This document shows, one piece after another, positions 1 to 16,900 of a stretch of DNA of 64,000 nucleotides. Position numbers and translations under genes: made by a program. The stretch's first letter is position 1. Each line of letters opens with the position of its first letter. The DNA lies in the NCBI GenBank assembly GCA_037190965.1, contig JBBCKI010000068.1:32001-96000 (forward strand), read 5' to 3'. Source of the stretch: Chthoniobacteraceae bacterium (GTDB lineage: Bacteria > Verrucomicrobiota > Verrucomicrobiia > Chthoniobacterales > Chthoniobacteraceae). The notes under the pieces are model-generated. The model was not told the DNA's origin. It saw only the letters and a program-made list of their open reading frames with translations, and did not search any database.

Positions 1-2
1 TG

Positions 3-428
3 CGCCACGCCAACCGGCATCTTCGCCGTCTGAGCGACCGCTATGAACTCCGCCGCGCGACCGCTACGGGAAGCGAACTCGGGTTGGAGATTGTCGATCT
101 TCATCAGGCGGGGAGTGTCCGCCCCACCTCCAGCCTTTCCGGCGGGGAAAGCTTTCTCGCCAGTTTGGCCATGGCTTTGGGGCTTTCGGATCTTGCGGGG
201 AGGAACGTCCGCATCGACTCCCTCTTCATCGACGAAGGGTTTGGCTCGCTCGACGCGGACACGCTCGACCTCGCCCTTGCCGCGTTGGATACGCTTCGCC
301 TCAATCACAAGACTGTAGGCGTCATCTCGCACGTGGAGCTTCTCAAAGAGCGCATTCCCGTGCAGATCCGGGTTGAAAAACAAGCGGGCGGCCTGAGCCG
401 CCTGCGAATGCCCTGGGATCGCGAGTAG
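3..428 (+). CDS. sbcC: SbcC/Rad50-family SMC-like exonuclease subunit, C-terminal part (begins before window)
   Basis: ABC signature LSGGESFLASLAMALGLS, Walker B LFIDEGFGSLD, VGVISHV; frame open from window start. Confidence 0.9.
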   Translation, partial: RHANRHLRRLSDRYELRRATATGSELGLEIVDLHQAGSVRPTSSLSGGESFLASLAMALGLSDLAGRNVRIDSLFIDEGFGSLDADTLDLALAALDTLRLNHKTVGVISHVELLKERIPVQIRVEKQAGGLSRLRMPWDRE

Positions 429-456
429 TCCGGCGGAATGGTTTATGGCCGTGAAA

Positions 457-539
457 GGCGTCGCGGAGCTCCGCCCTCCGTGAGAAGGAATACGCGGCAT
501 AGCAAACCCCAACAGCGGAGGGCGGAGCTCCGCGACGCC
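457..539. repeat. REP-like doublet family B, copy 1 (24-bp perfect inverted repeat, GGAG-type)
   Basis: GGCGTCGCGGAGCTCCGCCCTCCG (457-480) and its reverse complement (516-539), between convergent genes. Confidence 0.85.
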
Positions 540-554
540 GCTGCATGATTTAGT

Positions 555-1841
555 CTAGCGAAGCTGCAGGGTATCCGCCTGCCCGGCAGCACTGGTGCTC
601 CCGTCGTTCTTCGTCATCCGGAACCCGACCGGGCGGATCTCCGCCGCCGCTCGGTTCAAGCTTGCCTCCAGATAGCTGGCGGCGTCGCGGGCGGCCTTAC
701 TGAGGTCCGCCTCTTCGCTCAATTCCTGCTCCAGCGCCTTGAGAGCCGAGAGCGCTTCGGCCCGTTGCGTCTCCGCGAGCGCCTGAATGGCTGTGCGGCG
801 AAATACCGGGCTGGTGCGGCTCTCCCGCGCCCATCCCGGCAGCATCGGGATGGCGATCTCGGGATAATAGCGTGCGATCCCGTGCAATGCATAATGTCGG
901 GTGCTCGGCTCTCCCTCCAAGAGTTCGTGCTTCCAATAGGCCCATTCGGCATCGGGTTTGATGCCGTAATACTGCATCGCCAAGGCGCGCGCCAGCGGGT
1001 CGATCATCGCTTCGATCTTCGTCTGCGGATCGACGGTGATCGCCAGTTGCTCATCGGGAATTCCGATTTGCCGGAGGACGATCAGCGCTCTCACGAGATC
1101 GGCGACCTCCACTTTGAATGCGGCAGTGTTCCACGGGCTGGGCAGGTCGCTGCCGGCTTGCGTGAAGTTCGCGAAAGCGTTGGCGGGAAGGTTTTCCAGA
1201 ATCGCCAGGGCAGCGGTCTGCGCGGCGGGAAGGGAGACCTCGGGATGCTCCGCCAGATAGTCGAGCAGCCCCTGCAGCTTCGGCTCGGTATCGCTGGAGA
1301 GAGCCAAGGCGCGGTCATCGACCTGATTGGTGGACGCCGTGGGGATCGTCAGCAGGTCTTCGAGCCGGGTTTCACCGGGAGCGAAGTCGAAGAGTTGCGC
1401 TCTGGGGATGATCACGATGCCATGGGTCCCTTCGAACGCCTGCCCCGCCGGAATGGAAAGCCGAACCGGCTGGGGAGCCCGGTTGACCACCACCATGCGA
1501 AGGCGGTCGCGGCCATTGCCCCGGAATTCCGCCGTCATCGCGCCTTCCTCCAGCGCGAAGGCGAGATCCGTGGTCAACCGTTCTCCCGCCGGGACATTCG
1601 AGAGGTCGGTCGCCTGCCGTGCGGTTTCCGTGGGGCTGGCGGGCTTGGGATCGGCGGCGGGAGGAGGCGTGATCGTGACCGATGCGATTGCGGCGGGCTG
1701 GGCTGGAGGGGGAGGGACCGGCGCGGAGGCACTGAGAGTGGCCTTGCCCTGAACCTCATACGTTCCACGCAAAAACCACCCTGCCGCGCCACCCGCGCAA
1801 AGCGCGGTTGCGAGACTGAGGGAAAACAAAGTGCGGTTCAT
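555..1841 (-). CDS. Exported/membrane-anchored hypothetical protein with C-terminal HEAT-like repeats
   Basis: N-terminal hydrophobic segment, Pro-rich linker, helical repeats (TRHYALHGIA, FRRTAIQALA). Confidence 0.65.
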   Translation of the reverse strand: MNRTLFSLSLATALCAGGAAGWFLRGTYEVQGKATLSASAPVPPPPAQPAAIASVTITPPPAADPKPASPTETARQATDLSNVPAGERLTTDLAFALEEGAMTAEFRGNGRDRLRMVVVNRAPQPVRLSIPAGQAFEGTHGIVIIPRAQLFDFAPGETRLEDLLTIPTASTNQVDDRALALSSDTEPKLQGLLDYLAEHPEVSLPAAQTAALAILENLPANAFANFTQAGSDLPSPWNTAAFKVEVADLVRALIVLRQIGIPDEQLAITVDPQTKIEAMIDPLARALAMQYYGIKPDAEWAYWKHELLEGEPSTRHYALHGIARYYPEIAIPMLPGWARESRTSPVFRRTAIQALAETQRAEALSALKALEQELSEEADLSKAARDAASYLEASLNRAAAEIRPVGFRMTKNDGSTSAAGQADTLQLR

Positions 1842-1943
1842 GCAGGGTGCGGCAGGCAGGGAGGTGCGGAGAATAGTACAAAGTCCGATTCACTGCAATT
1901 TCCATGCCGCTTGTCCCGTCTCCGGGTGCAATACGGCGTGCGC

Positions 1944-2092
1944 GGTAGTCCGCTCTCGCCGAGAGCGCGGGATATGACGAGAATGCGCGTTTGGCGCCCA
2001 TCCCCCGGAAGGATTGTTGGTGCGGTTGGGATGCGGCTTCAAGAGAAGCACGGGAGCCGATACGCGCGCTCGGCGGCCGGTGCTGCCGCACC
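1944..2092 (+). repeat. GTAG-type REPIN-like element family A, copy 1 (right REP partly deleted)
   Basis: GGTAGTCCGCTCTCGCCGAGAGCGCGGG...CATCCC...GGGATG...GGGAGCCGATAC...GGTGCTGCCGCACC; homologous to five other copies. Confidence 0.85.
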
Positions 2093-2113
2093 GTTTGTCA
2101 GGGAAGTAGCGGC

Positions 2114-2389
2114 CTATTTCCGCCGCACCCGGTCTTTCTTTTCCTCGCTCTCTTCCTGAATGCGCCGCAGTTCCGCCGCGAGCTGCTTTTCGATGGAGGC
2201 CACTTCGTCAAACTGGCCGCGCGCCCGAGCTTTTGCGATCTGTTCGCCGAGGAAAAGCTCCTTTTCCGCGACTCGCGACTTGGCGATGCTTTCGATCTCG
2301 GCGATTTCCGCCTTCTGCGCTTCGGTGAGCTTTTGCGTCGGAGCCTGTTTTTCCAAACGTTCCATGGCGAGTTCGTAAGCGGATTTCAT
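2114..2389 (-). CDS. Small coiled-coil hypothetical protein (MKSAYELAMERL...)
   Basis: Charged helical 91-aa ORF; start moved to ATG 2389, preceded by TTGATT-17-GATAAT. Confidence 0.75.
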   Translation of the reverse strand: MKSAYELAMERLEKQAPTQKLTEAQKAEIAEIESIAKSRVAEKELFLGEQIAKARARGQFDEVASIEKQLAAELRRIQEESEEKKDRVRRK

Positions 2390-2468
2390 GGTTGCGATTA
2401 TCCGTCGTCCGCGTCCGGCAATCAATCGCTTTGCGCAGGCGCGCCATTGAAGGTACACTCTCGGCGAC

Positions 2469-3281
2469 ATGATTCGCCTTCTCAGCACCGATTTTGACGG
2501 AACGCTCGTTGACCACGACGCCTCGCCCGCTGTTTCGCCCGCTTTATATGAAACGCTGGCGCAATTGCGGCGTTGCGGCGTCTCCTGGGCGGTCAACACG
2601 GGGCGCGATCTCAACTTCATCCTTCAGGGCTTGAACGATTTCGAGTTCCCGATCGAGCCCGACTATATCCTGACCAACGAACGGGAGATTTTCCACCGGA
2701 ATAGCCAGGGCGAATGGCAGGATTACGGCGACTGGAACCGGCGTTGCGTCGAAGCCCATGACACGTTGTTCGAGTCAGAGAGCGGACTGCTCCGGGAAGT
2801 GCTCCGGTTTGCCGAGACGGAGATCAACGCGAAGACGATCTACGAAAAGAACCGGCCTGTGGGGTTGGTTGGCGATGGAGACGCCGATATCGACCGTTTT
2901 ATCGGTTTTCTCCATGAGCAACGCTCCCGGGATTCGCTCTTCCATTACCAGCGTAACACGATCTTCCTTCGGTTTTGTCATGCCCACTATTCCAAGGGAA
3001 GCGCGCTGGGGGAGCTATGCCGCCTGACCGGCATTTCGGAGCACGAGACTTTCTCGATGGGCGACCATCATAACGACCTCTCCATGCTCGATGGGCGTTT
3101 TGCCCGCTGGCCCGCCGCCCCGGGCAACGCCATTGACGAGGTCAAAGCCACCGTGAAAAACGCCGGGGGCTACATCGCCCAGGGCCGTTGCAGCGAGGGG
3201 GTCTTGGAGGCGTTGCAGCATTTCTTCGATACGCACTCGCTGGCTCCCGCGGGATTTCAGGGATTTACAAAATCCGCCTAA
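2469..3281 (+). CDS. HAD-superfamily subfamily IIB (Cof-like) phosphatase
   Basis: Motifs STDFDGTL, NTGR, SKG, GDHHNDLSM. Confidence 0.9.
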   Translation: MIRLLSTDFDGTLVDHDASPAVSPALYETLAQLRRCGVSWAVNTGRDLNFILQGLNDFEFPIEPDYILTNEREIFHRNSQGEWQDYGDWNRRCVEAHDTLFESESGLLREVLRFAETEINAKTIYEKNRPVGLVGDGDADIDRFIGFLHEQRSRDSLFHYQRNTIFLRFCHAHYSKGSALGELCRLTGISEHETFSMGDHHNDLSMLDGRFARWPAAPGNAIDEVKATVKNAGGYIAQGRCSEGVLEALQHFFDTHSLAPAGFQGFTKSA

Positions 3282-3319
3282 AAGCCTCTTCCATCGCCCG
3301 CTCCATCAGGAGCGTGGCG
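3265..3319 (-). repeat. Displaced duplicate of the Hsp70/hscA 3' end (att-like direct repeat)
   Basis: 3290-3319 is identical to 9289-9318; on the minus strand it reads ATLLMERAMEEAFRRIL* vs gene end ATLLMERAMEEALRRKGIL*. Confidence 0.9.
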
Positions 3320-3327
3320 CCCGCGAC

Positions 3328-4062
3328 CTAGAAACTCAAACCGCCGCTCCAAAAGGAATTTTGCGAGGTCATCTTCCGAATCTCCGAACGGGGAACCGCG
3401 CTGACGTGGCCGTCCATATAAACGACATTCAGATGATCGCCATGCGCGTAAAACGTATCCTGCTTGTTGGTGAAGGTGCTTGGAGCGATGGTGGAAGGAT
3501 ATGAGACCTCGTTTGGGGTGATGTTTGGCTTTACCCCATCCATAAACATGGCCATTTGAGCCGGTTGTGGAATGCCGGCGATCGGCGGGCTAAGGAAGAT
3601 GCTGGGCTCCGAAGGGGCGCCATCATCAAGAAACTCGCCCGTCCCTTTTGCATAGGTATTAAGGCAATAGCTCTGCCAGGTGCCGATTGCCTTGTTGTGT
3701 TTGCGCCGATCTGCCGGACACCAGGCAACCTCTGTTGGGGAGGTCGTCCTCTTCCATTCAGCAAGGTAATCAAGAAGGCTGCCTCTCACCGAGTAGGTGC
3801 CTTGTGTTCCCGACCGAAGCCGACCATTGGGTTGCTTCCAGTCGGCACTGGGCATTGATCCACGATGGTCGTAAGCGTAACGGAGGGCGGACTCGCCAAG
3901 TTTTTTGAGCTTGTTGATGCAGGATGCATTGTCCCCCATGTCAACGACACCCTGGTAAGCGGGGATCGCCAGAAGCGCCAACGAAGCGAGGATCACCATC
4001 GCAATCAAGACTTCCGCCAGCGAGAAGGCCAGGGATGATGAAGGGGGAGGCGTGCGGTTCAT
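3328..4062 (-). CDS. Prepilin-type N-terminal cleavage/methylation protein with C-terminal H-X9-DG motif
   Basis: A|FSLAEVLIAMVILASLALLAIP, CINKLKKLG, C-terminal HGDHLNVVYMDG. Confidence 0.9.
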   Translation of the reverse strand: MNRTPPPSSSLAFSLAEVLIAMVILASLALLAIPAYQGVVDMGDNASCINKLKKLGESALRYAYDHRGSMPSADWKQPNGRLRSGTQGTYSVRGSLLDYLAEWKRTTSPTEVAWCPADRRKHNKAIGTWQSYCLNTYAKGTGEFLDDGAPSEPSIFLSPPIAGIPQPAQMAMFMDGVKPNITPNEVSYPSTIAPSTFTNKQDTFYAHGDHLNVVYMDGHVSAVPRSEIRKMTSQNSFWSGGLSF

Positions 4063-4072
4063 ATCGGAGTAA

Positions 4073-7027
4073 TTATTTTTGAGGGAGGCTTATAGCATCG
4101 ACGAGGTACTTCCCGCTCAGCAGCTTAACATAGGCGGCTCCCTCCGGGAGGGTTTCCCAGATTGCCGGGCCATCCTGGGCGAGCTTTCGATCAAGGGGAG
4201 CCCCCTCGGCATTGCAGAGGACAACCGTTGTGGCGGAAGTTTCCGATGGGAAGAGGACTTTAACCCCATCACCAGCCGATTGCACAGCCAAGGCGCGGGG
4301 AAGACGGGCGACCACGGCAACCCGCTTTGGTGAGACCTTCAAGACGAGCCCTTTTTCAGCCACGGGTAGTTCCACACCGTTGAGCAGATCGAAGTAATGA
4401 TGTGATGCCGTTTCTTGCGCGGGCATGGCCGGGCCTTCGATTGGCTTTTCACGGTCATTCAGCAGCACGGTGATGGTTTTGCGACCGGTAGCAAATCGGT
4501 TTGCATAGAGGTAGTCCTGCAAGGTGGACACCAGGGGTTCCACCTGCGTTGAGCGAAAGGCGTCTGCGTTCTCGCGCAGGATACGGTGATAATTCTCGGG
4601 CCAAGGCCGCTGAAACAGCCCCACGCCATTCCAGAGCATGATCTCATGATAGGCCTTGCTCGGGAATGAGTGCGATGAGGTTACATTCTCGAAAAGCGTG
4701 ACTCCCGGGAAATAGAAACGGAAGATGTTGAGCGGCAATGGGCGGAAGCCGGGGATTGCCCAGCGCATTTCATGCAGAAGAGCGCCGTCAAGTTCTCCCG
4801 CGAGGAAGTCGCACCCTGCGTACTCGCCGGTGAGCAGAATGTCCGGCTTTTTGGCGCTGCAGGCGGCCCTGACCTTTAACATCAGGGCTTTCATGGACCT
4901 CATGACGGCATGCTCGCCAGGCTCGGCAAACTGGTGCGTGTGTTCTTTGCTATAGCAGACAAACCCTGTATAGCCAAACTGATCGAGCCGAATGCCATCC
5001 ACTTGGGTATCTCCCACAAGACGGGCCATATTATTCGCGTAGGCTTGTTGATAATCCTCATTATCCGTGCACATGCTCCATTTGGCATACGTAATGAGGT
5101 GATCGCCCTTCGGGGTTTCAGGAAGCGGGCCCGGCGTGTGCTGAACGTGAGGATTAACGACACTATGCTTTCGTCCGTAGTTTTTCCCCATTTCGGTCGT
5201 GCTATCCACAATGAACGGATCGGTGTAGAATTGCACCAGGGCACCGGCTTCGTGTGCGGTGGCGATGCCTTTCTTCAATCCCTCAAGGCCTTCCATGCTG
5301 GTATTATAAGCATAGTCTCCATCGTTGACGGCGTTGACGAGCTTTCCTCTCACCGGGTCATCCATGAAGAAGTAGTTCCACTTGTTGTGCATCTGGCGGA
5401 GGGTTTCCTCTCGGCCCTGATCCAGGGAAACTCCAAAGGGGCCCTTTTCGGACCACTCCCACCAGTGGCGGAATTCGCCCATGTCGATCCCGTCCTCACG
5501 ATAGCCGCCGTACCACTCCTTGGTTTCGAAATTGTAGAGCCGCTTCTGAACCTGCGGTTCCGAAGGCAGGCTGGCGGTGATGGTCTGGATCAACCAAACA
5601 TCCCTGATGGCCGTGTCGGGCGAGCGCCACTTCCATACCGAATGAGCCCACTTTGCATAGGTGCTCATGGCCGCCTTCCAGTCGCCGGGGTGGATCTCAA
5701 TCACCGCGTCGGGATACTTGAATCGGCCGCCGGTCTCCCGCGTGTGGCGCTGGTATTCGAATCCCATCGCGCTTCCTTTGCCCGGTGTCAGGCTCTGTTT
5801 CCAGAGCATTCCTTTTTCAAGGCGATTTCCAAGATCGGTGACGGCCCTTGCAAAAGCGGGATGCTTCACTCCTTTTCGGAAGGCGATCCCCTTCAGAAGC
5901 CCCCCTTCGTCGAGGGAGCGCATCGAGATCCCGCTTCCCTTTCCAGGAGAGTAGACATCGACCATCTGCCACATCGCCTCATTGGCCGCATAGAACAGGC
6001 GGAGATCGGTATTTACCTTTTGAACAATGCCGCCCCGGAATGGGTAGCAATAGTAATCGTCATCTGGGTTATCGGAAACGCTGATGCCGCCGATCTGCGG
6101 AAACACCGTCTTCCACGAATGCTCCTTTCCTGAGATATTCACCATCTCCAAGCCAAGACGCAAGTGCTCCGCAGTCACCGTCGCAGTAAAGCTGGCCTCC
6201 AGCCCGCCACCCTCCAGCAGCACTTCGGCGGAATCGCCCTTGATGCGCGTTTCCTTGACCACCCAGTCTCTGGCTGTCACCGTGCGCCCATCGCCCGTGT
6301 CGACAAGGAAGAGGCCGGTTTTTGAGGGATCGAGAAGAATATCCTTCCCTGCAAACTCATCAAAAAGCGAGACAAGGCGCAATCCTCCCTTCGTGGAAAA
6401 CACCGCCTTGAGCGCCGGATTGGAGAGGGTGAATCCGTTCTCTGTTTTCTCAATTTCCGGGGCGCGCCCGGCGGGCGAGTTGGCCGGTTTTGAGATTGCG
6501 GGGGCCATGTTTACCGGCGTTCCCGTATCGGCGAGTTCGAAGAACACCTGCGCCTCCGTGACCGGCTGAGATGGATCAAAGCGAATCAAAAAATGACGGA
6601 GCGCCTGGGCCTCGCTGCGTCCCGAGAGCTTCAGGGAGACACCCTCAAATTTATGAAACTCTATTTCTCCCGGCCGTTCTTCAACAAAGGCTCCCCCCTT
6701 TTGAAGCTCAACGACAATCTTCTTCCCCTGAACATCAAAAGCTTCAACCACGACGGCATCGGTGTTTTTGGTCAGCAGATGAAGACGCACGGGCTTCTGC
6801 GGATCGAATCGTCCACCGTCCAAGACGATCTTCAGTTCGGACTTTCCAAGAAGCCTCCCGTCTTCAACCACCCGTGTCGGGTTTTTGTTTACGCCGGTGA
6901 GTTCACCGGTGCGTCGCCATGTTGAGGATTGTTCTGCGAAGGAGGGAGTCGTCAGGGCGAGCAACGGAAAGGTTGCGCAGGCAATCAGGCGGGTGGAGAG
7001 TGAACGTTGGGAAGGCATGGGGAACAA
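4073..7027 (-). CDS. Large secreted putative glycoside hydrolase-like protein (DUF6259-like TIM barrel)
   Basis: Signal peptide; MC...DGIRLDQFG...CYSKEHTH and LTGE motifs; Trp/Tyr-rich; sits next to a LacI regulator. Confidence 0.6.
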   Translation of the reverse strand: MFPMPSQRSLSTRLIACATFPLLALTTPSFAEQSSTWRRTGELTGVNKNPTRVVEDGRLLGKSELKIVLDGGRFDPQKPVRLHLLTKNTDAVVVEAFDVQGKKIVVELQKGGAFVEERPGEIEFHKFEGVSLKLSGRSEAQALRHFLIRFDPSQPVTEAQVFFELADTGTPVNMAPAISKPANSPAGRAPEIEKTENGFTLSNPALKAVFSTKGGLRLVSLFDEFAGKDILLDPSKTGLFLVDTGDGRTVTARDWVVKETRIKGDSAEVLLEGGGLEASFTATVTAEHLRLGLEMVNISGKEHSWKTVFPQIGGISVSDNPDDDYYCYPFRGGIVQKVNTDLRLFYAANEAMWQMVDVYSPGKGSGISMRSLDEGGLLKGIAFRKGVKHPAFARAVTDLGNRLEKGMLWKQSLTPGKGSAMGFEYQRHTRETGGRFKYPDAVIEIHPGDWKAAMSTYAKWAHSVWKWRSPDTAIRDVWLIQTITASLPSEPQVQKRLYNFETKEWYGGYREDGIDMGEFRHWWEWSEKGPFGVSLDQGREETLRQMHNKWNYFFMDDPVRGKLVNAVNDGDYAYNTSMEGLEGLKKGIATAHEAGALVQFYTDPFIVDSTTEMGKNYGRKHSVVNPHVQHTPGPLPETPKGDHLITYAKWSMCTDNEDYQQAYANNMARLVGDTQVDGIRLDQFGYTGFVCYSKEHTHQFAEPGEHAVMRSMKALMLKVRAACSAKKPDILLTGEYAGCDFLAGELDGALLHEMRWAIPGFRPLPLNIFRFYFPGVTLFENVTSSHSFPSKAYHEIMLWNGVGLFQRPWPENYHRILRENADAFRSTQVEPLVSTLQDYLYANRFATGRKTITVLLNDREKPIEGPAMPAQETASHHYFDLLNGVELPVAEKGLVLKVSPKRVAVVARLPRALAVQSAGDGVKVLFPSETSATTVVLCNAEGAPLDRKLAQDGPAIWETLPEGAAYVKLLSGKYLVDAISLPQK

Positions 7028-7063
7028 TGAGCGATGAACAGGGAGAGGACTTTGTCAGGCGAT

Positions 7064-7873
7064 CTACTTAAGCTTTCGCCGCAAGAGGAGACCGGCAATG
7101 CCAGCGGGCAATAGAAGGGCCGCAGTGGCCGGCTCCGGGATGGCTTCGAGCTGGAAGCTATCATACCCCACGGTTCTATCAGCGGAACGGAAGTTGGTTC
7201 TCAAGCCCGTGACCCCGCTGGTATAGCTGCTGTCCGTCACATTGATGGAAGTGATCAGATTTCCATTGCTGGTGCTAAATAGTGATGCGGTCAACTGGTC
7301 CCCCACAAACTCGAACTCAAGGCGGTAATAGTTGGTGCTGCTGACACTGATCGTACTGGATGCGGCAATGATATAGCTTCCCACATCGGTAAACTGGATG
7401 TTCTTGGAGATAACAAGCCGAACGCCCGAGGCATCGCGCAAAATTCCCGCAAAATAGCCGTCAGGAGTCCCGCCGTCCGCCGAGGGGGTTTGAACGCGCG
7501 CCATGATCCCCATGGATTGATTGTTATTGGAGATGAATTGAACCACGGAGGTCACTTTTCCATCACTAACCTGGGAACCGCTTCCCTGATAGTATGCCAT
7601 GGTAAACTGGCTGCTTGTCGCCCCGACGGGGTTGGCCATTTGGAGCACTCCGTTTCCAGTGAGAGAAAGCGTCGTTGGCGTAGCGGTGCCTGATCGTTTG
7701 ATGGTCCAGTCCGCATAAGTGGAACCTGAGCCAGGGAAGGCGCCTGCCGTCCCATTAAAGTCGGTTTGGTAGACGACGGCAGCTTCCGCGGGCGCGACTG
7801 CGAAGAAGAGAATCGCTGCAATGGTGTTGACTATCGATAGAGCGCCGAGGGGAAGGAAGGGAGTGGTTCTCAT
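7064..7873 (-). CDS. PEP-CTERM sorting-domain surface protein with beta-sandwich (lectin-like) body
   Basis: Signal peptide, Ser/Thr/Gly-rich body, C-terminal IPEPATAALLLPAGIAGLLLRRKLK. Confidence 0.92.
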   Translation of the reverse strand: MRTTPFLPLGALSIVNTIAAILFFAVAPAEAAVVYQTDFNGTAGAFPGSGSTYADWTIKRSGTATPTTLSLTGNGVLQMANPVGATSSQFTMAYYQGSGSQVSDGKVTSVVQFISNNNQSMGIMARVQTPSADGGTPDGYFAGILRDASGVRLVISKNIQFTDVGSYIIAASSTISVSSTNYYRLEFEFVGDQLTASLFSTSNGNLITSINVTDSSYTSGVTGLRTNFRSADRTVGYDSFQLEAIPEPATAALLLPAGIAGLLLRRKLK

Positions 7874-7887
7874 GGGGGTGGGAGTAA

Positions 7888-9042
7888 TTAGGGGGTGATT
7901 TGCGGGGACGGATTGTTTTTTCGAGTGCGTTTTTCGGAAGGTGCGGGAAAGCCCGTGGGAGTTTTTCCGACGCTCTCCCGGCGGATCAACTGAGCGTTGA
8001 CGTAAATATCGCCAGATCTCTCATTCCGGTTAATCTGACGGAGCATGATGTCGAAAGCGCTCTGCGCGATTTCTTTGGAATCATATTCCACTGCTGTCAG
8101 CGGGAAGCCACCGGCATCTCCGGCGCCAAGAATCCCGATGCTTACGATGGAAATATCCTCCGGGTAGCGGAGTCCTCTTGCGCGGCCCATCGATAACAAA
8201 TGCCATGCGACGCGGTTATTGCTGGTAATGACGGCGCTGCCTCTCTCCGGCCAGTCGAGGTAAGAAGTGATGTAGCGCTCGAACAACCTCTTGTCCTCTG
8301 TCGGAGAGAGTCCGAATCGAGCCGCCAGATCCCGCGCGTCTGTCGTCTCGTGCCGAGGCGAAAATATCCGCACGTCCAGTTCCGCATTGCACGGCTCACT
8401 GCGGTCGAGCAGCGCTGCGTAGCGCCCGGCCGTTGCCGAATTGTCGAAGTGGGGGTGCAGAATGTCGATGCGGCGGTGGCCCATTCGCATCAACTCGTCG
8501 CGCGCCAGCATGCACTCCTGCTTGCGATCTTTGATGATTCTACCCGCAAGCGTGGACAGCCCGTTGCCGCCCAACTCGGAGAGAAGAACCAACGGCATCT
8601 TCATTCCTGCCAGCCACTGCTGCATTTCAGCTCCTTCGTAGCTGCTCCGGGCCGGGTAGAGCATGATCCCGTCAACCCGCGACTCCGCCAGCCATCTCAA
8701 GGCCTTGTCTTCTCCGTCCGGAGACCAGCGGTGGAACTGGAAGAGAAGCTGATAGCCCCGGTCGGACGCCACCTGGTTCAGTTCGTCCAGAATGGCTGCG
8801 TAATAAGGATCGATGGCGATCGGCATCACGACGCCCAGCACCCCGGTGCGCCCGAGCGAAAGTGACTTCGCCAACTGGTTGGGCACATAGCCAAGATTTC
8901 GGGCGATCTCCTTGATCCGGGTTCGCGTGCTTTCAGGCAAGCGGGAGCTGTCGTTGAGAGCCATGGATACTGTGGCTACCGTACAGTTCGCCTTGGCGGC
9001 AATTTCGCGAAACCGAACAGGTTTGGAGGAAGGGGAGGGCAT
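7888..9042 (-). CDS. LacI-family transcriptional regulator
   Basis: HTH FREIAAKANCTVATVSMALN, GYVPNQLAKSL, PEDISIV, LIRRES. Confidence 0.93.
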   Translation of the reverse strand: MPSPSSKPVRFREIAAKANCTVATVSMALNDSSRLPESTRTRIKEIARNLGYVPNQLAKSLSLGRTGVLGVVMPIAIDPYYAAILDELNQVASDRGYQLLFQFHRWSPDGEDKALRWLAESRVDGIMLYPARSSYEGAEMQQWLAGMKMPLVLLSELGGNGLSTLAGRIIKDRKQECMLARDELMRMGHRRIDILHPHFDNSATAGRYAALLDRSEPCNAELDVRIFSPRHETTDARDLAARFGLSPTEDKRLFERYITSYLDWPERGSAVITSNNRVAWHLLSMGRARGLRYPEDISIVSIGILGAGDAGGFPLTAVEYDSKEIAQSAFDIMLRQINRNERSGDIYVNAQLIRRESVGKTPTGFPAPSEKRTRKNNPSPQITP

Positions 9043-9054
9043 GGAATACGCTGC

Positions 9055-9087
9055 TTTACCGGTTAAATAGCTTAACCGGTTAAACTA
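9055..9087. promoter_or_regulatory. Tandem LacI-type operators (TTAACCGGTTAA) overlapping the cassette promoter
   Basis: TTTACCGGTTAA (9055-9066) and near-perfect palindrome TAGCTTAACCGGTTAAACTA (9068-9087); minus-strand TTGCTT-17-TATTTA spans the second box. Confidence 0.7.
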
Positions 9088-9147
9088 AGCAAGAATAAAT
9101 TGGACGGACATACAAGCTGAGGTTCAGGTGTGAGCCAAAAAGACTGG

Positions 9148-9183
9148 AATCAGCCCCTCCGATGATCGATTTGGGGGCTGATT
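9148..9183. terminator. Hairpin downstream of the hscA-like gene (possible terminator)
   Basis: AATCAGCCCC...GGGGCTGATT 10-bp stem, long loop, no immediate U-tract. Confidence 0.4.
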
Positions 9184-9257
9184 GAAAGGAGTCGCTCCGC
9201 GTTTGGCAGGCACCGGTCAGGCGCGCCAACGTGCTTTCTTTCCGCAATCCGTAATTC

Positions 9258-11069
9258 CTACAAAATCCCCTTACGCCTGAGCGCCTCCTCCATCGCCCGC
9301 TCCATCAGGAGCGTGGCGAGGTTCTGGGTCGCTTCATCGAGAGCGGCGGTCGCTTTTTTGAGGGCGTGCGGGTTTTCGCCAGTCAGCGCGGTTTCCACTT
9401 CCGCCATCAACACGGCGATGCGTTGCCGCTCTTCTCCGTCCACTTCGTCCCCCAGCAACGTGAGCGCGTTGCGGACCGCGGGGAGCATTTCGGCGGCTTT
9501 CAGGCGCGCCTCGGTAAAGACGCGCTCGGTCATGTCCTCAAAGGCGTGATCGAGCGATTCGGCGATCATCTGTTCCACCGCCTCGTCGGAGACATCCACG
9601 GCGCTTCGCATCTCGACCACCCGTTCCGCTCCCGTTTTTGTATCGCGAGCCAGCACGTGAAGAATCCCGTCGGCGTCGATTTCAAACTGCACCCCCACCC
9701 GCGCCTGCCCTTTCGCGGCGGGTTCGAAACCGAGTTCGAACTGACCGAGTTCCCAGTTGTCCCGGGCCATCTCGCGTTCCCCCTGCAACACGCGGATCAA
9801 CACGGAGCGTTGCCCCGCCACGGCGTTGGTGAACATTTCGCCCGCCTTGGTGGGGATGGTGGAGTTGCGCGGGATGATGACATTCATCAACCCGCCAAAG
9901 GTTTCGATGCCCAGCGAAAGGGGGGTAACATCCAGTAGCACCACGTTGCGCACCGCCCCGGAGAGAATGCCTGCCTGGATGGCCGCGCCGAGGGCCACCG
10001 CCTCGTCGGGGTTTTGCGAAAGGTTCGGCTCGCGCCCGAAAATCTCCGCCACGAACCGTCGCACCAGCGGCATGCGTGTCTGGCCGCCCACCAGAATCAC
10101 CTCATTGAGATCGCGCGCTTCCAGCTTCGCGTCGGCCAGCGCGCGGATGCAGTGGGCGCGGGTCCGTTCGATCACGGGCCGGGCAAGCCGCTCCAGTTCC
10201 TCGCGGGTGATGACGCAGGAGAAACTGCGGCCTTCGACGAGGAACGGCAGCTCGATGGTCGCTTCGGGTTCCGTCGAAAGACGGTGCTTGGCTTCCACCG
10301 CCGCTTCCCGCACGCGGGAGAGCGCCTCCACGGGGAGGGGAGCGTCGATTTTTTCCACCAGCCACGTTGTCAGAGCGTCGTCGATGTCGTCTCCGCCGAG
10401 GCGGGTATTGCCATGGGTGGAGAGCACCTGAAACACGCCGCCCGACAGTTCCAGAATCGAGAGGTCGAACGTGCCTCCGCCGAGATCGAAGACGGCCACC
10501 CTGGCATGCTCGCCGAGCTTGTCCGCGCCGTAGGCAAGAGCCGCCGCCGTCGGTTCGTTGAGGATCCGCTCCACCGTCAGCCCCGCCAGTTCGCCCGCCT
10601 TTTTGGTGGCATGGCGCTGGGCATCGTTGAAGTAGGCGGGGACGGTTACCACCGCCCGGGTGATCCCGCATTCGAGCGCGGCTTCCGCGTCGCGTTTCAG
10701 TTTGGCGAGGATCAGCGAGGAGATTTCCTCGGGAGAATAGTCATGGCCGTCGACCGCTACGCGAACCGGGGTGCCGGGCTGGCCCGTCAGGGCATAGGAA
10801 ACGCCGGTGGAATCCAGATCCTCGCCCACCCGCCGCCCCATGAAGCGTTTGATGGAATAGACCGTCTCAGTAGGGGCCAGAACCCGCATCCGGCTCGCCG
10901 CGCTTCCCACGAGCGGCTCTCCATGTTCACTGGGAAAGTGAACCACCGAAGGCGTCAGGCGCTTGCCATCGCGATCCGCTAGTAGAATAGGGAAACCGGC
11001 GTCCATCACGCCGATGAGCGAGTTGGTGGTGCCGAGATCGATGCCGACGATGGGATCCAGAGAGTCCAT
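9258..11069 (-). CDS. hscA: Hsp70-family chaperone, probably HscA-type
   Basis: GIDLGTTNS, TVPAYFND, EPTAAALAYG, DLGGGTFD, LLDVTPLSLGIET; adjacent to an HscB-like J protein (symbol inferred from context). Confidence 0.8.
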   Translation of the reverse strand: MDSLDPIVGIDLGTTNSLIGVMDAGFPILLADRDGKRLTPSVVHFPSEHGEPLVGSAASRMRVLAPTETVYSIKRFMGRRVGEDLDSTGVSYALTGQPGTPVRVAVDGHDYSPEEISSLILAKLKRDAEAALECGITRAVVTVPAYFNDAQRHATKKAGELAGLTVERILNEPTAAALAYGADKLGEHARVAVFDLGGGTFDLSILELSGGVFQVLSTHGNTRLGGDDIDDALTTWLVEKIDAPLPVEALSRVREAAVEAKHRLSTEPEATIELPFLVEGRSFSCVITREELERLARPVIERTRAHCIRALADAKLEARDLNEVILVGGQTRMPLVRRFVAEIFGREPNLSQNPDEAVALGAAIQAGILSGAVRNVVLLDVTPLSLGIETFGGLMNVIIPRNSTIPTKAGEMFTNAVAGQRSVLIRVLQGEREMARDNWELGQFELGFEPAAKGQARVGVQFEIDADGILHVLARDTKTGAERVVEMRSAVDVSDEAVEQMIAESLDHAFEDMTERVFTEARLKAAEMLPAVRNALTLLGDEVDGEERQRIAVLMAEVETALTGENPHALKKATAALDEATQNLATLLMERAMEEALRRKGIL

Positions 11070-11109
11070 GGCGGGAAGCTAATGCCAATGACCTCCCCGG
11101 GACAACGGC

Positions 11110-11279
11110 TAAAGCGTTTTTGAGTTAGATGTTTACAGAGGATTTGCGAGCACCGCAGTTCGATGGGAGGCTTTTCGAGCGCAGTGGCTGTATTTTCAAT
11201 ACTGCCCAAGCTCGAAATGCTTCATAGCGGACTGTGCTGCCGCAAAGCCTTTGTAAACAGGAACTCAAAACCACTTTTA
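11110..11279. mobile_element. MITE-like element family E (~170 bp, ~43-bp imperfect terminal inverted repeats, TA ends)
   Basis: TAAAGCGTTTTTGAGTTAGATGTTTACAGAGGATTTGCG vs CGCAAAGCCTTTGTAAACAGGAACTCAAAACCACTTTTA; right end overlaps the hscB stop. Confidence 0.6.
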
Positions 11280-11861
11280 ACTCTCGATTTGCAGCCGAAC
11301 CAGCCCTTCGCGGATCTGCGCGCTCCATTTATCGAGGTAGCCAAGCGCCTGCGCGGTCTCCGCGACTTGTGAAACGGGCCGCTCTGCTTCGCCGCTCGTC
11401 CAGGCTGCATCCAGCGCGGGAATGCGTTCCAGCCACCGCCCCCGTTCCGCCTCCAGCACTGCCAGCAGCGCCTCAAGGTCCTCCTGGAGCGTGTATTGTT
11501 CGGCTAACAACAACGCCTTCGCGAGCGCCGACCCGGCGGCGGTCCGCTTTTTCAGAAAACCGTCGAGTGCTTGTTTTTTGGCCCCCATTTCCAGAAAAAG
11601 CTCGCCCACCGAAGGCGGAGCCGCCACGCCCCGGAACGGCTCTTCGGGCGCTTCCAGTTCCAACAGGTGACGAAGCCGTGCGCGCGGATTGTTTAACACC
11701 CCGTAGGCCACGGTCAGCGCGGCGAAGGGGGGCGATCCGGCATCCGTTCCCGCCACGTCGGGGTGATGCTCCGCCGTCAAGGCGTGGAATCGGGCTTTCA
11801 GCGCCTCTTCTTCGAGCCATGGACGGCGCGGCTCCCCCAGCAAGGCAAAATGATCAGTCAT
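11277..11861 (-). CDS. hscB: HscB-like J-domain co-chaperone
   Basis: DHFALLG...FHALTAEHHPD J-domain, AYGVLNNPRARLRHLL, helical C-terminal domain. Confidence 0.8.
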   Translation of the reverse strand: MTDHFALLGEPRRPWLEEEALKARFHALTAEHHPDVAGTDAGSPPFAALTVAYGVLNNPRARLRHLLELEAPEEPFRGVAAPPSVGELFLEMGAKKQALDGFLKKRTAAGSALAKALLLAEQYTLQEDLEALLAVLEAERGRWLERIPALDAAWTSGEAERPVSQVAETAQALGYLDKWSAQIREGLVRLQIES

Positions 11862-11901
11862 TCCGGGAACCGTGCCGTGAAAGCCAAAAAGCGGCAACTT
11901 A

Positions 11902-12142
11902 AACCTGAATTCCGAGGTTGTTGCGGCGAGATCCCGTGCACGGCACGGGCTCCGCGTTGAGACTCCGCTGCGCTTCGTATTGAGAAAACCGTTTCGCGGT
12001 GGCGGTCTGACGCAATTTGTTGGCCGCGAGTGCCTTTCGTCAGAGACTCACCGTATCTAAAGATGCGCTTCGCTCTTCCTCAAGTCATCGCGACTCAACC
12101 CTCTCGCGCCAGCTCATCCGCTCCAACATCGGAGTTCAGGTT
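11902..12142. mobile_element. MITE-like element family F (~240 bp; terminal repeat AACCTGAAYTCCGA)
   Basis: AACCTGAATTCCGAGGTTG...CAACATCGGAGTTCAGGTT; possible TAA target duplication; same 13-mer at 57674. Confidence 0.55.
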
Positions 12143-12169
12143 AAATGACTTGACGGCATCCTAAGGGGT

Positions 12170-12207
12170 GATAGTTAGGTTTCTAAACTATCAGGGGGCT
12201 AACTAAC
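12170..12207. promoter_or_regulatory. Putative MarR operator palindrome(s) upstream of the marR-RND operon
   Basis: GATAGTTAGGTTTCTAAACTATC plus overlapping degenerate TATCAGGGGGCTAACTA; TTGACG at 12150-12155. Confidence 0.6.
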
Positions 12208-12272
12208 CGGGTTCGCGCGATTCTTCTCGAGCGTCGCCGGTTCACCACCAATCCAAAAAACATCCTCACGCC

Positions 12273-12824
12273 ATGCCCCTCCTGATGCTCAAAGACCTCC
12301 CCCGCTACGAATGCCTTCTCAAGGCGGCGGAGCGGTATCCCGACATGGAACTCAGCGCGAACGAGGCGTTCCTGAACCTCCTGAGGACGGCGGACATGAT
12401 GTTTGCGGAAAAGGGGCGCTACCTCGGCCAGCTTGGCCTGAGCCAGGGGCGTTTCACCGTTCTGATGCTTCTCAACGGGTGCTGCGAACATCCGGCGACG
12501 CCTGCGTCGCTCGCGGATGAAGCCGGAGTGACCCGCGCGACCATGACGGGGCTCATCGATAACCTGGAGCGGGACGGTTTTGTCGTCCGCGAAGCCGATC
12601 CCCTTGATCGCCGTACGGTTCTGGTGCGGCTGACGGAGGCGGGCCAAACGTTTGTGGAAGGGATGCTCCCCGGCTGGTTCCAGCGAGTTTCCTCCGTCAT
12701 CGACCCCTTGGACGAGGCGGAACGCAAAACACTCGTGGACCTCCTCCAGAAAATCCAGATCGGCCTGACTCCTTCCCCCGCAGAAGATCTTAAAACCGAA
12801 TCGTTCAAACCATCCGAAGCCTGA
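12273..12824 (+). CDS. MarR-family transcriptional regulator
   Basis: GLSQGRFTVL, ATMTGLIDNLERDGFV, DRRTVLVRLTEAG. Confidence 0.92.
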   Translation: MPLLMLKDLPRYECLLKAAERYPDMELSANEAFLNLLRTADMMFAEKGRYLGQLGLSQGRFTVLMLLNGCCEHPATPASLADEAGVTRATMTGLIDNLERDGFVVREADPLDRRTVLVRLTEAGQTFVEGMLPGWFQRVSSVIDPLDEAERKTLVDLLQKIQIGLTPSPAEDLKTESFKPSEA

Positions 12825-12829
12825 AATTT

Positions 12830-13951
12830 ATGTGGAAGAGAATGCTGACAATGCTGGTTCTGGTGGTCCTCGCCGTGGGGGCTATCGCCTTTGCTAAATA
12901 CCGCCAGATCCGCGCGGCGATGGCGCAGGGGATGAGCTTCAAGATGCCTCCCGCCGCCGTCACTACGCTGGTCGCCCGGGGGGAGCGGTGGCAGCCGGTA
13001 CTTCACGCGGTCGGCTCGCTACGGGCCGTGCACGGGGTGGAAGTCAGCACCGATCTCTCCGGGATCGTGCGGGAGATCGCCTTCGAATCCGGCACGCCGG
13101 TGAAAGAGGGTGACTTGCTCATCAAGCTCGATACCCGGCAGGAAGAGGCCCAACTGAAAGCGGCGGAGGCCGCCCGGGAACTGGCCCGCCTGAACCTGAG
13201 CCGCCAGCGCGACCTGCTTTCCAAGAAGGCCACCTCCCAATCGGAGTTTGACGCGGCGGCGGCAAGCGCCGACCAGAGCGACGCCTCGGTGGAGCAGATC
13301 AAGGCGCTTATCGCCCGCAAGACCATCCATGCTCCCTTCGATGGCGTGCTCGGAATCCGGAACGTGAACATCGGCCAGTTTCTCGATGTGGGGAAATCGA
13401 TCGTCCCGCTCCAATCGCAGGATCCGATCTATGTCGAGTTCGCGCTTCCGCAGCAGGAACTCGGCAACGTCGCCCTGGGGAAGAAAGTCCGGCTCAAGGT
13501 GACCGGGCTGGAAGGTAAAGAGTTTGACGGCGAGATCACCGCTATCAACTCCAAGGTGGACGAATCCACCCGCAACATCCAGGTGGAAGCCACCGTTTCC
13601 AACAAGGACGGCATCCTGCGTAGCGGCATGTTTGTGCGGGTGGAAGTCCTGATGCCCGAACAGGATGGCATCGTCGCCATTCCGGCCTCCTCGATCAACT
13701 ACGCTCCTTATGGTGATTCGGTCTTCATCGTCAAGGACGCGGAGGGGGGGCAGGGCGGCAAACAGGTGATCCAGCAGGTGGTGAAGGTGGGGCCCTCGCG
13801 CGGCGATCAGGTCTCCATTCTTTCCGGGGTAAAGGAAGGCGACGAAGTGGTGACTTCCGGCGGGTTCAAGCTCAACAGCGGCGCCGAGGTTCAGGTCAAC
13901 AACACCGTTCAGCCGAGCAACGAAGCCAACCCGAACCCGCCCGAAACCTGA
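12830..13951 (+). CDS. RND efflux periplasmic adaptor (membrane fusion protein)
   Basis: N-terminal TM, SGIVREIAFESG lipoyl-like motif, IHAPFDGVLG, LRSGMFVRV. Confidence 0.93.
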   Translation: MWKRMLTMLVLVVLAVGAIAFAKYRQIRAAMAQGMSFKMPPAAVTTLVARGERWQPVLHAVGSLRAVHGVEVSTDLSGIVREIAFESGTPVKEGDLLIKLDTRQEEAQLKAAEAARELARLNLSRQRDLLSKKATSQSEFDAAAASADQSDASVEQIKALIARKTIHAPFDGVLGIRNVNIGQFLDVGKSIVPLQSQDPIYVEFALPQQELGNVALGKKVRLKVTGLEGKEFDGEITAINSKVDESTRNIQVEATVSNKDGILRSGMFVRVEVLMPEQDGIVAIPASSINYAPYGDSVFIVKDAEGGQGGKQVIQQVVKVGPSRGDQVSILSGVKEGDEVVTSGGFKLNSGAEVQVNNTVQPSNEANPNPPET

Positions 13952-13976
13952 CGGTCTTTTGGATCTCTCTTAGGTT

Positions 13977-16900
13977 ATGAATTTTACCGATCTCTTCATC
14001 CGGCGGCCCGTCGTGGCAACCGTCGTCAGCTTGCTCATTCTGCTGGCGGGGTTCCAGTCGTACCGTTTGCTCAACGTGCGGCAATACCCGCGCAGCGACA
14101 TTGCCGTCATCACGGTCAAAACTGCCTATGTCGGCGCGAATGCCGACCTCGTGCGAGGCTTCATCACCACGCCGCTCGAACGCGTTATCTCCAGCGCGGA
14201 TGGGATTGACTTCGTGGAATCGACGAGCGCGCAGAGCCTCAGCACCATCTCGGTTCATCTCAAGCTCAACTACGATACCAACGCCGCGCTCACGCAGATC
14301 CAGGCGAAGGTCGCACAGGTTCGCAATCAGCTTCCTCCCGAGGCGGAGTCGCCGGTTATCGAGTTGGAAACGACGGATAACCAGTTCGCGTCGATGTACC
14401 TGAGCTTCTACTCCAAGGAGCTTGATCAGAACCAGATCACCGATTACCTCACCCGGGTCGTCCAGCCGAAGCTCTCCGCCGTCAGCGGGGTGCAGCGGGC
14501 CGATATTCTCGGGGCGCGCACGTTTGCCATGCGGATCTGGTTGAAGTCGGACCGCCTTGCCGCGTTGAACGTGTCACCTTCCGAAGTTCGCGCCGCGTTG
14601 GCGTCGAACAACTATCTCTCCGCCGTCGGCGCCACCAAGGGGTCGATGATCTCCGTCAACCTGATCGCCAATACTGACCTGAGATCGCCGGAAGAATTCC
14701 GGGAGCTTGTCGTGCGGGAGCGGGATGGCGTGATCGTCCGGCTCAAAGACGTGGCCGAAGTCAACCTCGGCGCGGAGAGCTACAACGACGACGTCCGCTT
14801 CTCCGGTCAGAAGGCGACCTTCATGGGCATCTGGGTGCTGCCGACCGCCAACTCCCTCGATGTCATCAAAGCCGTGCGGGCGGAGTTGCCCGCCATTGAG
14901 AAGCAGCTCCCCTCCGGCATGAACGTCGGGGTCGGTTACGACGCCACCGAGTACATCAACGATGCGCTCCATGAGGTCATCCGTACCTTGAGCGAGACGC
15001 TCATTATCGTCGTCATCGTCATCTTCTTCTTCCTTGGCTCGCTCCGGACGGTGTTGATTCCGGTTGTCGCCATCCCGATCTCGCTCGTCGGCGCGCTTTT
15101 CCTGATGCTGCTCTTCGGGTTCACGATCAATCTCCTCACGTTGCTGGCCATTGTGCTGGCGGTCGGGCTTGTGGTGGACGACGCCATCGTTGTGGTCGAA
15201 AACGTGGAGCGGTATCTGCAACTGGGCCATGCTCCATTCGAGGCGGCCCTCAAGGCTGCCCGCGAACTCTTCGGGCCGCTGGTCGCCATGACGATCACTC
15301 TCGCGGCGGTCTATGCGCCCATCGGGCTGCAAGGCGGGCTGACGGGCACGCTCTTCCGTGAGTTCGCCTTCACGCTGGCGGGCGCGGTGGCTGTGTCCGG
15401 GGTTGTGGCGCTCACGCTCTCTCCGATGATGTCTTCGGTGCTGCTGAGGTCGGGGGATTCGCACCGGGGTTATGCAGGATGGATCAACCATCGCTTTGAC
15501 GCGTTGCGCAGGCTTTATCGGCGCATTCTTGCCAATACGCTTAACTACCGTCCCGTCACCATCACCCTCGCGGTGATCATTATTCTTCTCTCGGCCCCGT
15601 TCTTCATGTTCTCGCAGAAGGAACTTGCGCCCAAGGAGGATCAAGGTTTCGTGATGGCGATTCTCCAGGCATCGCCGAATTCCACCATCGACCAGACGGT
15701 TCTTTATTCCGAACAGGTCTACGAAGTCTTCAAGACGATCCCTGAAATGGGGAACGCCTTTCAGCTCACCAGCCCCGGCGGCGGTTTCGGCGGTCTCGTC
15801 ACCAAGCCGTGGAGCCAGCGCACACGATCCACGGAAGAGATCAACGGCGAGCTTTTCGGCAAGGTCTCCGGCATCGGCGGCGTGCGCGTCATCACCACGA
15901 CGCCTTCTCCGCTGCCCGGCGGCAGCAACTTCCCGGTGGAAATAGCCATCGTCTCCACGGCGGAACCGGCGCAGTTGTTGGAGTTCGCCAACCAACTGGT
16001 GCAGACCGCCTACAAGACGGGGCTTTTCATGTATGCGGATACCGACCTGAAGTTTGACCAGCCGCAGACGGAAATCGTGTTCGACAGGGACAAGGTCGCT
16101 TCGCTCGGACTCAACCTGCAAAAGGTCGGCGCGGACCTCGGTACCTTGCTCGGCGGGAACTATGTCAACTGGTTCAACATCCAGGGCCGCAGTTACAAGG
16201 TCATCCCGCAGATTACGCGTACGGAGCGGCTCAACACCGATCAGTTGAACGACTATTACGTCAGTGGCCCGGATGGGAAGCTGGTCGCCCTTTCGACATT
16301 CGCCACGTTGAAAACCTCGGTGGAGCCCCGTTCGCTCAACCGTTTCCAGCAGCTCAACTCTGCGCGCATCCAGGGGGTTATCCCGCCCGGCGTGTCATTG
16401 GACATGGCGCTCTCGAAACTCGAGGAAGAGGCCGCAAAAATTCTCCCGAAAGGCTTCACGCTTGATTACGCAGGTGAGTCCCGCCAGCTCCGGCTGGAGG
16501 GCAACAGCTTTTACGGAACGATGGCGCTTTCGCTCATCCTCATCTTCCTGGTGCTGGCAGCCCAGTTTGAGAGTTTCCGCGATCCGTTCATCATTCTGGC
16601 CGGATCGGTGCCGCTCGCGCTCTCCGGCGCGCTGTTCTTCACCTTCTTCGGGTTCACCTCGCTCAACATTTACAGTCAGGTCGGGTTGATCACGCTCGTC
16701 GGGTTGATCGCCAAGAACGGCATTCTGATCGTCGAGTTCGCCAACCACTTGCAGGAGTCGGGCTTGAGCAAACTTCACGCCGTGATCGAAGCCGCCGCGA
16801 CCCGTCTGCGTCCGATCCTGATGACGACAGTGGCCACGGTCGTCGGACACTTCCCGCTGGTGCTGGCCAGCGGCCCCGGCGCGGGCTCCCGTAACAGCAT

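Follow-up and report, generated by a model that had tools for sequence, protein, structure and literature searches.

A glycan-use module between two copies of the hscA 3' end in a Chthoniobacteraceae genome, a probable recombinase-free insertion

We analysed a 64,000-nt stretch of DNA, hereafter the window, from a Chthoniobacteraceae soil bacterium (GenBank assembly GCA_037190965.1, contig JBBCKI010000068.1, positions 32,001 to 96,000). In this window four genes lie between the gene of a HAD-family hydrolase and hscA, which encodes an HscA-like Hsp70 chaperone, and they are flanked by two copies of the hscA 3' end, one of which is the working end of the gene and the other an orphan. With a probability that we put at about 0.6, RecA-type host recombination brought this block, a regulated glycan-use module, in from a relative; the element would have had no enzyme of its own and would have left a long target duplication behind. 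The scar is probably a real, recent insertion made without a recombinase.

The two tails, of 55 and 61 nt, are an imperfect direct repeat around an identical core of 30 bp, and the genome contains these two copies only. Direct comparison of 3290-3319 with 9289-9318 gave 30 of 30 identical positions, and 35 of 36 (97.2%) were identical over 3284-3319, as a first-pass annotation of this DNA had reported. The 30-mer occurs twice in the window, and none of 100 shuffled sequences matched it even at three mismatches. When the genome was searched, as that annotation had proposed, only these two sites were found in the 4.2-Mb assembly (73 contigs, the window contig being C68) at up to six mismatches. 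A gapped alignment carries the likeness on to the stop codon, with five substitutions and one in-frame 6-nt gap, and both tail peptides quoted earlier are correct. All differences are confined to the stop-proximal half, the inner 30 bases being identical.

An assembly artefact had been raised as an objection to this repeat. Two contigs from run X1, possibly the source of the assembly, span 1944-6042 and 6020-9359 with zero differences at a flat depth of about 10, and a piece from run X2 of the same study covers 3283-3505, again with zero differences. As far as contigs show, the repeat is not an assembly artefact. The assembly is fragmented and this evidence comes from contigs; against that, separately assembled contigs bridge both copies, a second sample holds the left junction, the shuffled sequences gave no match and the copies themselves differ by five bases and a gap. 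We consider an artefact or a chance match highly improbable.

The differences between the two tails indicate which of them is old. HscA proteins of congeners end in ALRRKG-like tails, and the working tail is therefore ancestral in type and the orphan derived at every difference. It had been proposed that the insertion swapped the C-terminus of the chaperone, which these data do not show: the intact tail is the ancestral-looking one, so that the end of the HscA protein, judged from these comparisons, probably did not change. The last five codons and the stop of the HAD gene are the antisense of the orphan tail, while the HAD C-termini of congeners have a like length and another sequence. The overlap claimed between the left copy and the HAD 3' end holds for the diverged end (3265-3281, 17 nt) but not for the identical 30-mer. 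The suggestion of an ancestral junction between convergent hscA and HAD genes gained support, because either tail, read in antisense, gives a HAD-frame stop at one and the same position (TAA at 3279-3281, TGA at 9278-9280), as an old overlap would give. The orphan's antisense supplies the HAD stop, which is a reason for the orphan to persist.

The DNA between the repeats measures 5938 bp (3320-9257). All four genes lie on the hscA strand, with a 215-bp spacer before lacI. Its GC content is 0.563, compared with 0.622 and 0.612 in the flanks, and the GC content at third codon positions (GC3) of three of the four genes falls in the lowest fifth of 2890 genes (0.64-0.71 in the cassette genes, 0.73 in the HAD gene and 0.78 in hscA). 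This comparison across the borders, also suggested in the first-pass annotation, supports the block as an insertion-like unit. Scanning the four inner open reading frames (ORFs) against Pfam revealed no recombinase, integrase, transposase or other mobile-element gene, in agreement with the earlier statement that the cassette holds no recombinase. The genome has ten tyrosine-recombinase and three resolvase matches, none of them on this contig. No tRNA was found in the window and no Rfam match in positions 1-16000.

To place the hscA case among others, we counted single-copy repeats of which one member falls inside a gene and the other between genes, using simple codon-model gene calls that contain errors. 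At spacings of 0.15-15 kb, direct and inverted repeats numbered 18 and 0 at a score of at least 22, 8 and 4 at 18-21, and 23 and 6 at 16-17; at 15-40 kb the corresponding numbers were 0 and 0, 1 and 2, and 7 and 8. By inspection, about half of the 18 direct repeats are decayed paralogues, transposase flanks or gene-calling errors. The remaining half or so are fragments of unrelated core genes, aligned over 27-89 nt and with no evident shared sequence; they comprise tails (class II ribonucleotide reductase, a sugar transferase, glucosamine-6-phosphate isomerase and GLF), a head (CobW) and middles (RuvX and PPDK). The hscA case is one of about nine such scars in the genome. Since orphan fragments come from the heads, middles and tails of so many unrelated genes, hscA is not a special integration site, nor is it established as a hot spot.

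The search for similar cassettes with a gene-tail duplication, recommended at the outset, returned a second module in the same genome that is closed by the GLF fragment, 13 bp behind the last stop of its LacI, PEP-CTERM-like and pilin-like genes. This module (C17, 18703-26754) encodes a LacI regulator, a PEP-CTERM-like protein, a pilin-like protein, a PcRGLX-like protein and an M14 peptidase, and ends in a 46-bp copy of the GLF 3' region; the whole GLF head sits between its repeats. At C31, 46422-46562, the CobW 5' end (its gene 5.1 kb off) and the RuvX middle (1.2 kb off) lie adjacent to each other in an intergenic region. The closest congener, G004, for which 0.82 Mb out of 2.6 Mb was covered, has the same bias, with seven direct repeats and one inverted repeat at a score of at least 18, one locus accounting for four of them.

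We then compared the locus and its module with relatives. HAD adjoined hscA in none of 29 loci with 1.5-kb flanks, none of 23 loci followed for 2.7-19 kb downstream and none of 92 loci from metagenomes and genomes. The closest hscA among the compared genomes is 83% identical and none of these genomes is conspecific; metagenome and genome scans for an empty site gave, among the matches listed, none closer than 76%. The neighbours of HAD and hscA change from species to species and gene order is poorly kept in the genus, so that these loci do not inform on the empty site. At least 15 joints from the contigs of three runs included neither an empty site nor a circle joint, although contigs drop rare variants and this is no evidence of absence. 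The third run, X3, gave no contig that matched this DNA.

Of 300 genomes of the order, two have a close homologue of the DUF6259 protein encoded in the module, at about 40% identity, and there is one weak match besides; the two are those of the congeners G001 and G005. In both, the DUF6259 gene stands beside a PEP-CTERM-like gene, between other core genes at unrelated sites, and in G005 genes for LacI-like and prepilin-like proteins accompany them. Across the three species, the module is thus found at three different sites. A family-wide search for second hscA tails matched 128 of 151 genomes and was insensitive, the window's own orphan scoring E = 0.086; six other genomes each gave two or more matches, always on different contigs. 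Four of the six were inspected and held two long second copies, one weak match and one orphan tail. The last belongs to a genome of another genus (G350, 5% contamination), where an orphan of about 95 nt lies between two genes (C102, 8430-8525) and the intact hscA on another contig. It starts at least 14 codons further upstream, and the break point is therefore not fixed.

The order of events that we favour would begin with hscA and HAD as convergent genes overlapping by 17 nt. The DNA that entered the cell would have come from a donor and comprised the four genes, the 215-bp spacer and the 3' end of an hscA gene. It may then have been trimmed and circularised and have undergone one RecA crossover in the shared tail; alternatively, homology may have anchored it in hscA while its far end was joined illegitimately to the resident tail. 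Either route would give hscA, module, orphan tail and HAD, which is the arrangement observed, and the orphan would then have drifted, partly kept for the HAD stop. Among the three options offered earlier (mobilisation in trans, a decayed island or short-homology recombination), the last fits best. Host recombination is favoured over a single recombinase because the targets are unrelated, the lengths and positions variable, the orientation strictly direct and the range short. One ComEC and one DprA above cut-off are present as DNA uptake genes; they are also found in 10 of 14 control genomes and are therefore weak evidence.

Several observations weigh against this reading. Neither an empty site nor a donor was found, for which reason the insertion event itself is inferred. 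The G001 and G005 modules have no flanking repeat, and homology-facilitated illegitimate recombination (HFIR; PMC3240628) mostly deletes resident DNA and gives no duplication. No scar with a score of at least 18 was seen in 0.4 of the 4.4 Mb of the congener G002. Only 1 of 26 prepilin-like genes picked by regular expression is bracketed by a repeat with a score of at least 22, the GLF case being missed by the expression, and decayed tandem paralogues inflate the direct-repeat count. In 11 scars picked by hand (pairs of paralogues, tRNAs and repeat elements left out), 30 of 55 scar-gene differences were silent, compared with 15.7 expected under pure neutral decay; against a null in which the intact copy also drifts, the excess has p = 0.059, and an origin from two alleles is therefore not established. 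All five hscA changes are towards A/T in the orphan, which fits the decay of a plain duplicate.

These A/T changes, together with the orphan being derived at every difference, would also suit a local tandem duplication, in which the lineage doubled a longer stretch with the hscA tail at its end, acquired the module between the two copies in some other way and trimmed the spare copy down to a part that carries the HAD stop and a hairpin useful between convergent genes. The confinement of the local scars to direct orientation and to 15 kb is in keeping with such an origin, as is the poor conservation of gene order in the genus. So are interleaved repeats in G004, where part of a pyridine nucleotide-disulphide oxidoreductase gene recurs 4 kb downstream of it as a decayed copy of 232 bp (C27, 6914-11107); this repeat encloses an MBOAT acyltransferase pair and is interleaved with a 16-bp hscA core. 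A duplication, however, needs extra events to fit a lower-GC module of four genes precisely into the space between the copies, so that only 8 bp separate its last stop and the repeat, and to do so again, at 13 bp, in the GLF case. Nor does it account for the absence of differences from the 30 bases that lie outside the HAD gene. No terminator-like site was called at the hairpin or the repeat. We regard it as a possible but rather doubtful origin.

The hairpin formed by 3295-3319 has a 10-bp stem with one bulged base, and its foot is the junction. As DNA it folds with z-scores of -3.0 to -4.1 in both copies and on both strands, and the core hairpin exceeds 96% of matched coding windows in strength. 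The scars do not in general share such a hairpin, 2 of the 11 hand-picked ones falling under 5%. A palindrome with a bulge that ends exactly at the junction is what site-specific integration could use as its crossover site. The hscA tail would then hold the attB, the tyrosine or serine recombinase would have worked in trans or have been lost since, as in a decayed island, and the working tail would be the replacement brought by the element. In islands that insert into protein-coding genes, such as the dusA islands, and in integrase-less cis-mobilisable elements (CIMEs), a regenerated gene and a displaced fragment mark the ends of the insert, and identity followed by divergence is expected at the boundary of an attachment (att) site. 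The abrupt inner boundary seen here, 30 identical bases and then divergence towards the stop, conforms to this, and a whole gene and a displaced fragment likewise bound the insert. Recombinases encoded elsewhere in the genome could act in trans, and G004 has two exact copies of the central 15-mer of the core, one in hscA and the other, in direct orientation, about 5.9 kb further downstream, with other cargo between.

Unlike those islands, however, the block has no integrase, no second element with this core was found, and the 8 bp of non-coding DNA between the last stop and the core are too few to hold arm sites. Searches for a third copy of the core, at up to six mismatches in the genome and by exact 28-mer in viral contigs, gave none. 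Of a related element with the same core we found one weak copy, that of G004, with no integrase match there, and none in 23 relatives; three of these have integrase-like matches downstream of hscA, none with a copy of the hscA tail, so that recurrence with an integrase is lacking in the relatives searched. The G004 match itself is 16-19 nt long and lies across runs of N, chance matches of 14-15 nt arose in the same test, and G005 has one copy of the 15-mer too, in an unrelated position. Most of the scars lack a comparable hairpin, the orphan boundary in G350 differs, and one recombinase cannot explain unrelated targets. Site-specific integration is therefore unlikely. Of the first-pass view that a cassette was inserted here, the insertion-like unit and the derived orphan stand, while an att-type island at a special site is not supported, as neither an empty site nor a second element with the core was found, the gap is 8 bp and orphan fragments of many unrelated genes occur. 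A still more speculative and improbable thought is that the bulged palindrome in the hscA tail serves repeatedly as a point of entry, known to the cell by its hairpin or through a host recombinase, and that Chthoniobacteraceae-like bacteria swap whole modules of regulator, PEP-CTERM, hydrolase and prepilin genes, and other cargo of about 6 kb, through it. The junction lies precisely at the hairpin foot here, and G004 has the core again some 5.9 kb behind its own hscA. If true, this would explain by a definite mechanism how the glycan modules dispersed in these bacteria move.

An import by host recombination has precedents. Furuta et al. (2010; PMC2853133) describe inserts with long target duplications that carry restriction-modification genes, with restriction cutting suggested as the cause. 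As in their cases, the insert is shorter than 20 kb and has no mobile-element gene, and the direct repeat on either side of it exceeds 30 bp, is slightly imperfect, occurs nowhere else and runs across a stop codon while the target gene stays intact. The H. influenzae examples in that study have 46 bp, alike at 44 of 46 positions. The cargo differs, being a glycan-use module with no nuclease and no restriction-modification genes, and whereas those authors have empty sites in sister strains, the insertion here is inferred from one genome. In PMC3240628, 56 of 60 E. coli clones had a partial duplication of the homology, of 109-950 bp in the 14 that were sequenced, ascribed to circularisation and one crossover. 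That process likewise has no recombinase; it depends on RecA, and a single crossover duplicates a variable part of the homology. In contrast to the present case, it concerned a laboratory plasmid substrate in E. coli, with duplications longer than the 55-61 nt found here. The loci of type VI secretion system (T6SS) effector-immunity pairs and rhs genes (PMC5361080) resemble ours in that an upstream anchor is conserved, new genes are inserted and the old 3' part is orphaned downstream. There, however, the effector end is replaced and events recur at one locus, whereas here the gene is a housekeeping chaperone with an essentially unchanged end, and recurrence is at most a hint.

The block is not a new class of element. 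Scars of recombinase-free import were already known, if little studied; what is new is a glycan-module cargo in a Verrucomicrobium. Our literature search found neither hscA as a target nor these modules, and was too limited to call them unpublished. Verrucomicrobial genomes carry many modules of regulator, PEP-CTERM, hydrolase and prepilin genes (a simple motif finds 26 prepilin-like genes in this one), whose sites differ between congeners and which have no mobile-element genes. Two such modules with target duplications in one genome suggest that they travel by ordinary homology-assisted import, and their exact junctions make this testable. A pattern described for restriction-modification genes would thereby extend to metabolic cargo.

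Table 1 Features at the hscA locus, in window coordinates.
Feature	Position	Strand	Basis or remark
HAD-IIB hydrolase gene, left neighbour	2469-3281	+	Pfam Hydrolase_3 and TIGR01484 above cut-off
Orphan hscA 3' end	3265-3319	-	55 nt (17 codons plus stop) with an in-frame 6-nt deletion and 5 substitutions, each towards A/T
Identical core	3290-3319	.	30 bp, identical to 9289-9318
Prepilin-like protein, 244 aa	3328-4062	-	H-X9-DG-like C-terminus; TIGR02532 and TIGR04294, both under cut-offs
DUF6259 protein, 984 aa	4073-7027	-	Pfam PF19773 above cut-off
PEP-CTERM-like surface protein, 269 aa	7064-7873	-	TIGR02595 at 15.3 bits, just under the cut-off of 16
LacI-family regulator, 384 aa	7888-9042	-	Pfam LacI and Peripla_BP_3
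12-bp palindrome, two copies	9055-9083	.	Upstream of lacI; candidate operator
Working hscA 3' end (right-hand repeat)	9258-9318	-	61 nt
HscA-like Hsp70, 603 aa	9258-11069	-	Pfam HSP70; passes the cut-off for one DnaK model but none for HscA models
HscB-like J-domain gene, precedes hscA	11277-11897

The four genes of the module are consistent with a role in glycan use. The DUF6259 protein has DUF6259, GH123-like and melibiase-like neighbours in the Atlas, which are leads only, and no match among PDB sequences; it is probably a secreted glycoside-hydrolase-like enzyme. The prepilin-like gene has 11 paralogues in the genome. The two copies of the 12-bp palindrome account for two of the three genome-wide matches at no more than one mismatch, and the module may regulate itself through this putative operator. 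Since the chaperone scores under the HscA cut-offs and stands beside an HscB-like gene, 'HscA-like' is a fair name for it; a second Hsp70, 47% identical, is encoded on another contig.

Some further repeats were observed elsewhere. A hairpin-bearing intergenic stretch of 77 bp occurs on both sides of one gene of 1184 aa (C18, 40367-44196), and a block of phage head and tail genes (C62, 3335-24461) has the end of a terminase-like gene matched over 32 bp at a distance of 14 kb, perhaps by chance. In G005, 36-bp repeats with a spacing of about 66 bp look CRISPR-like (C119, 15146-15637), and we take the adjacent ORF to be Cas1-like. Within the window itself, a perfect 24-bp inverted repeat with a 35-nt loop lies between convergent genes (457-539), and multi-copy intergenic elements are found near 1940, 11170 and 12030-12105.

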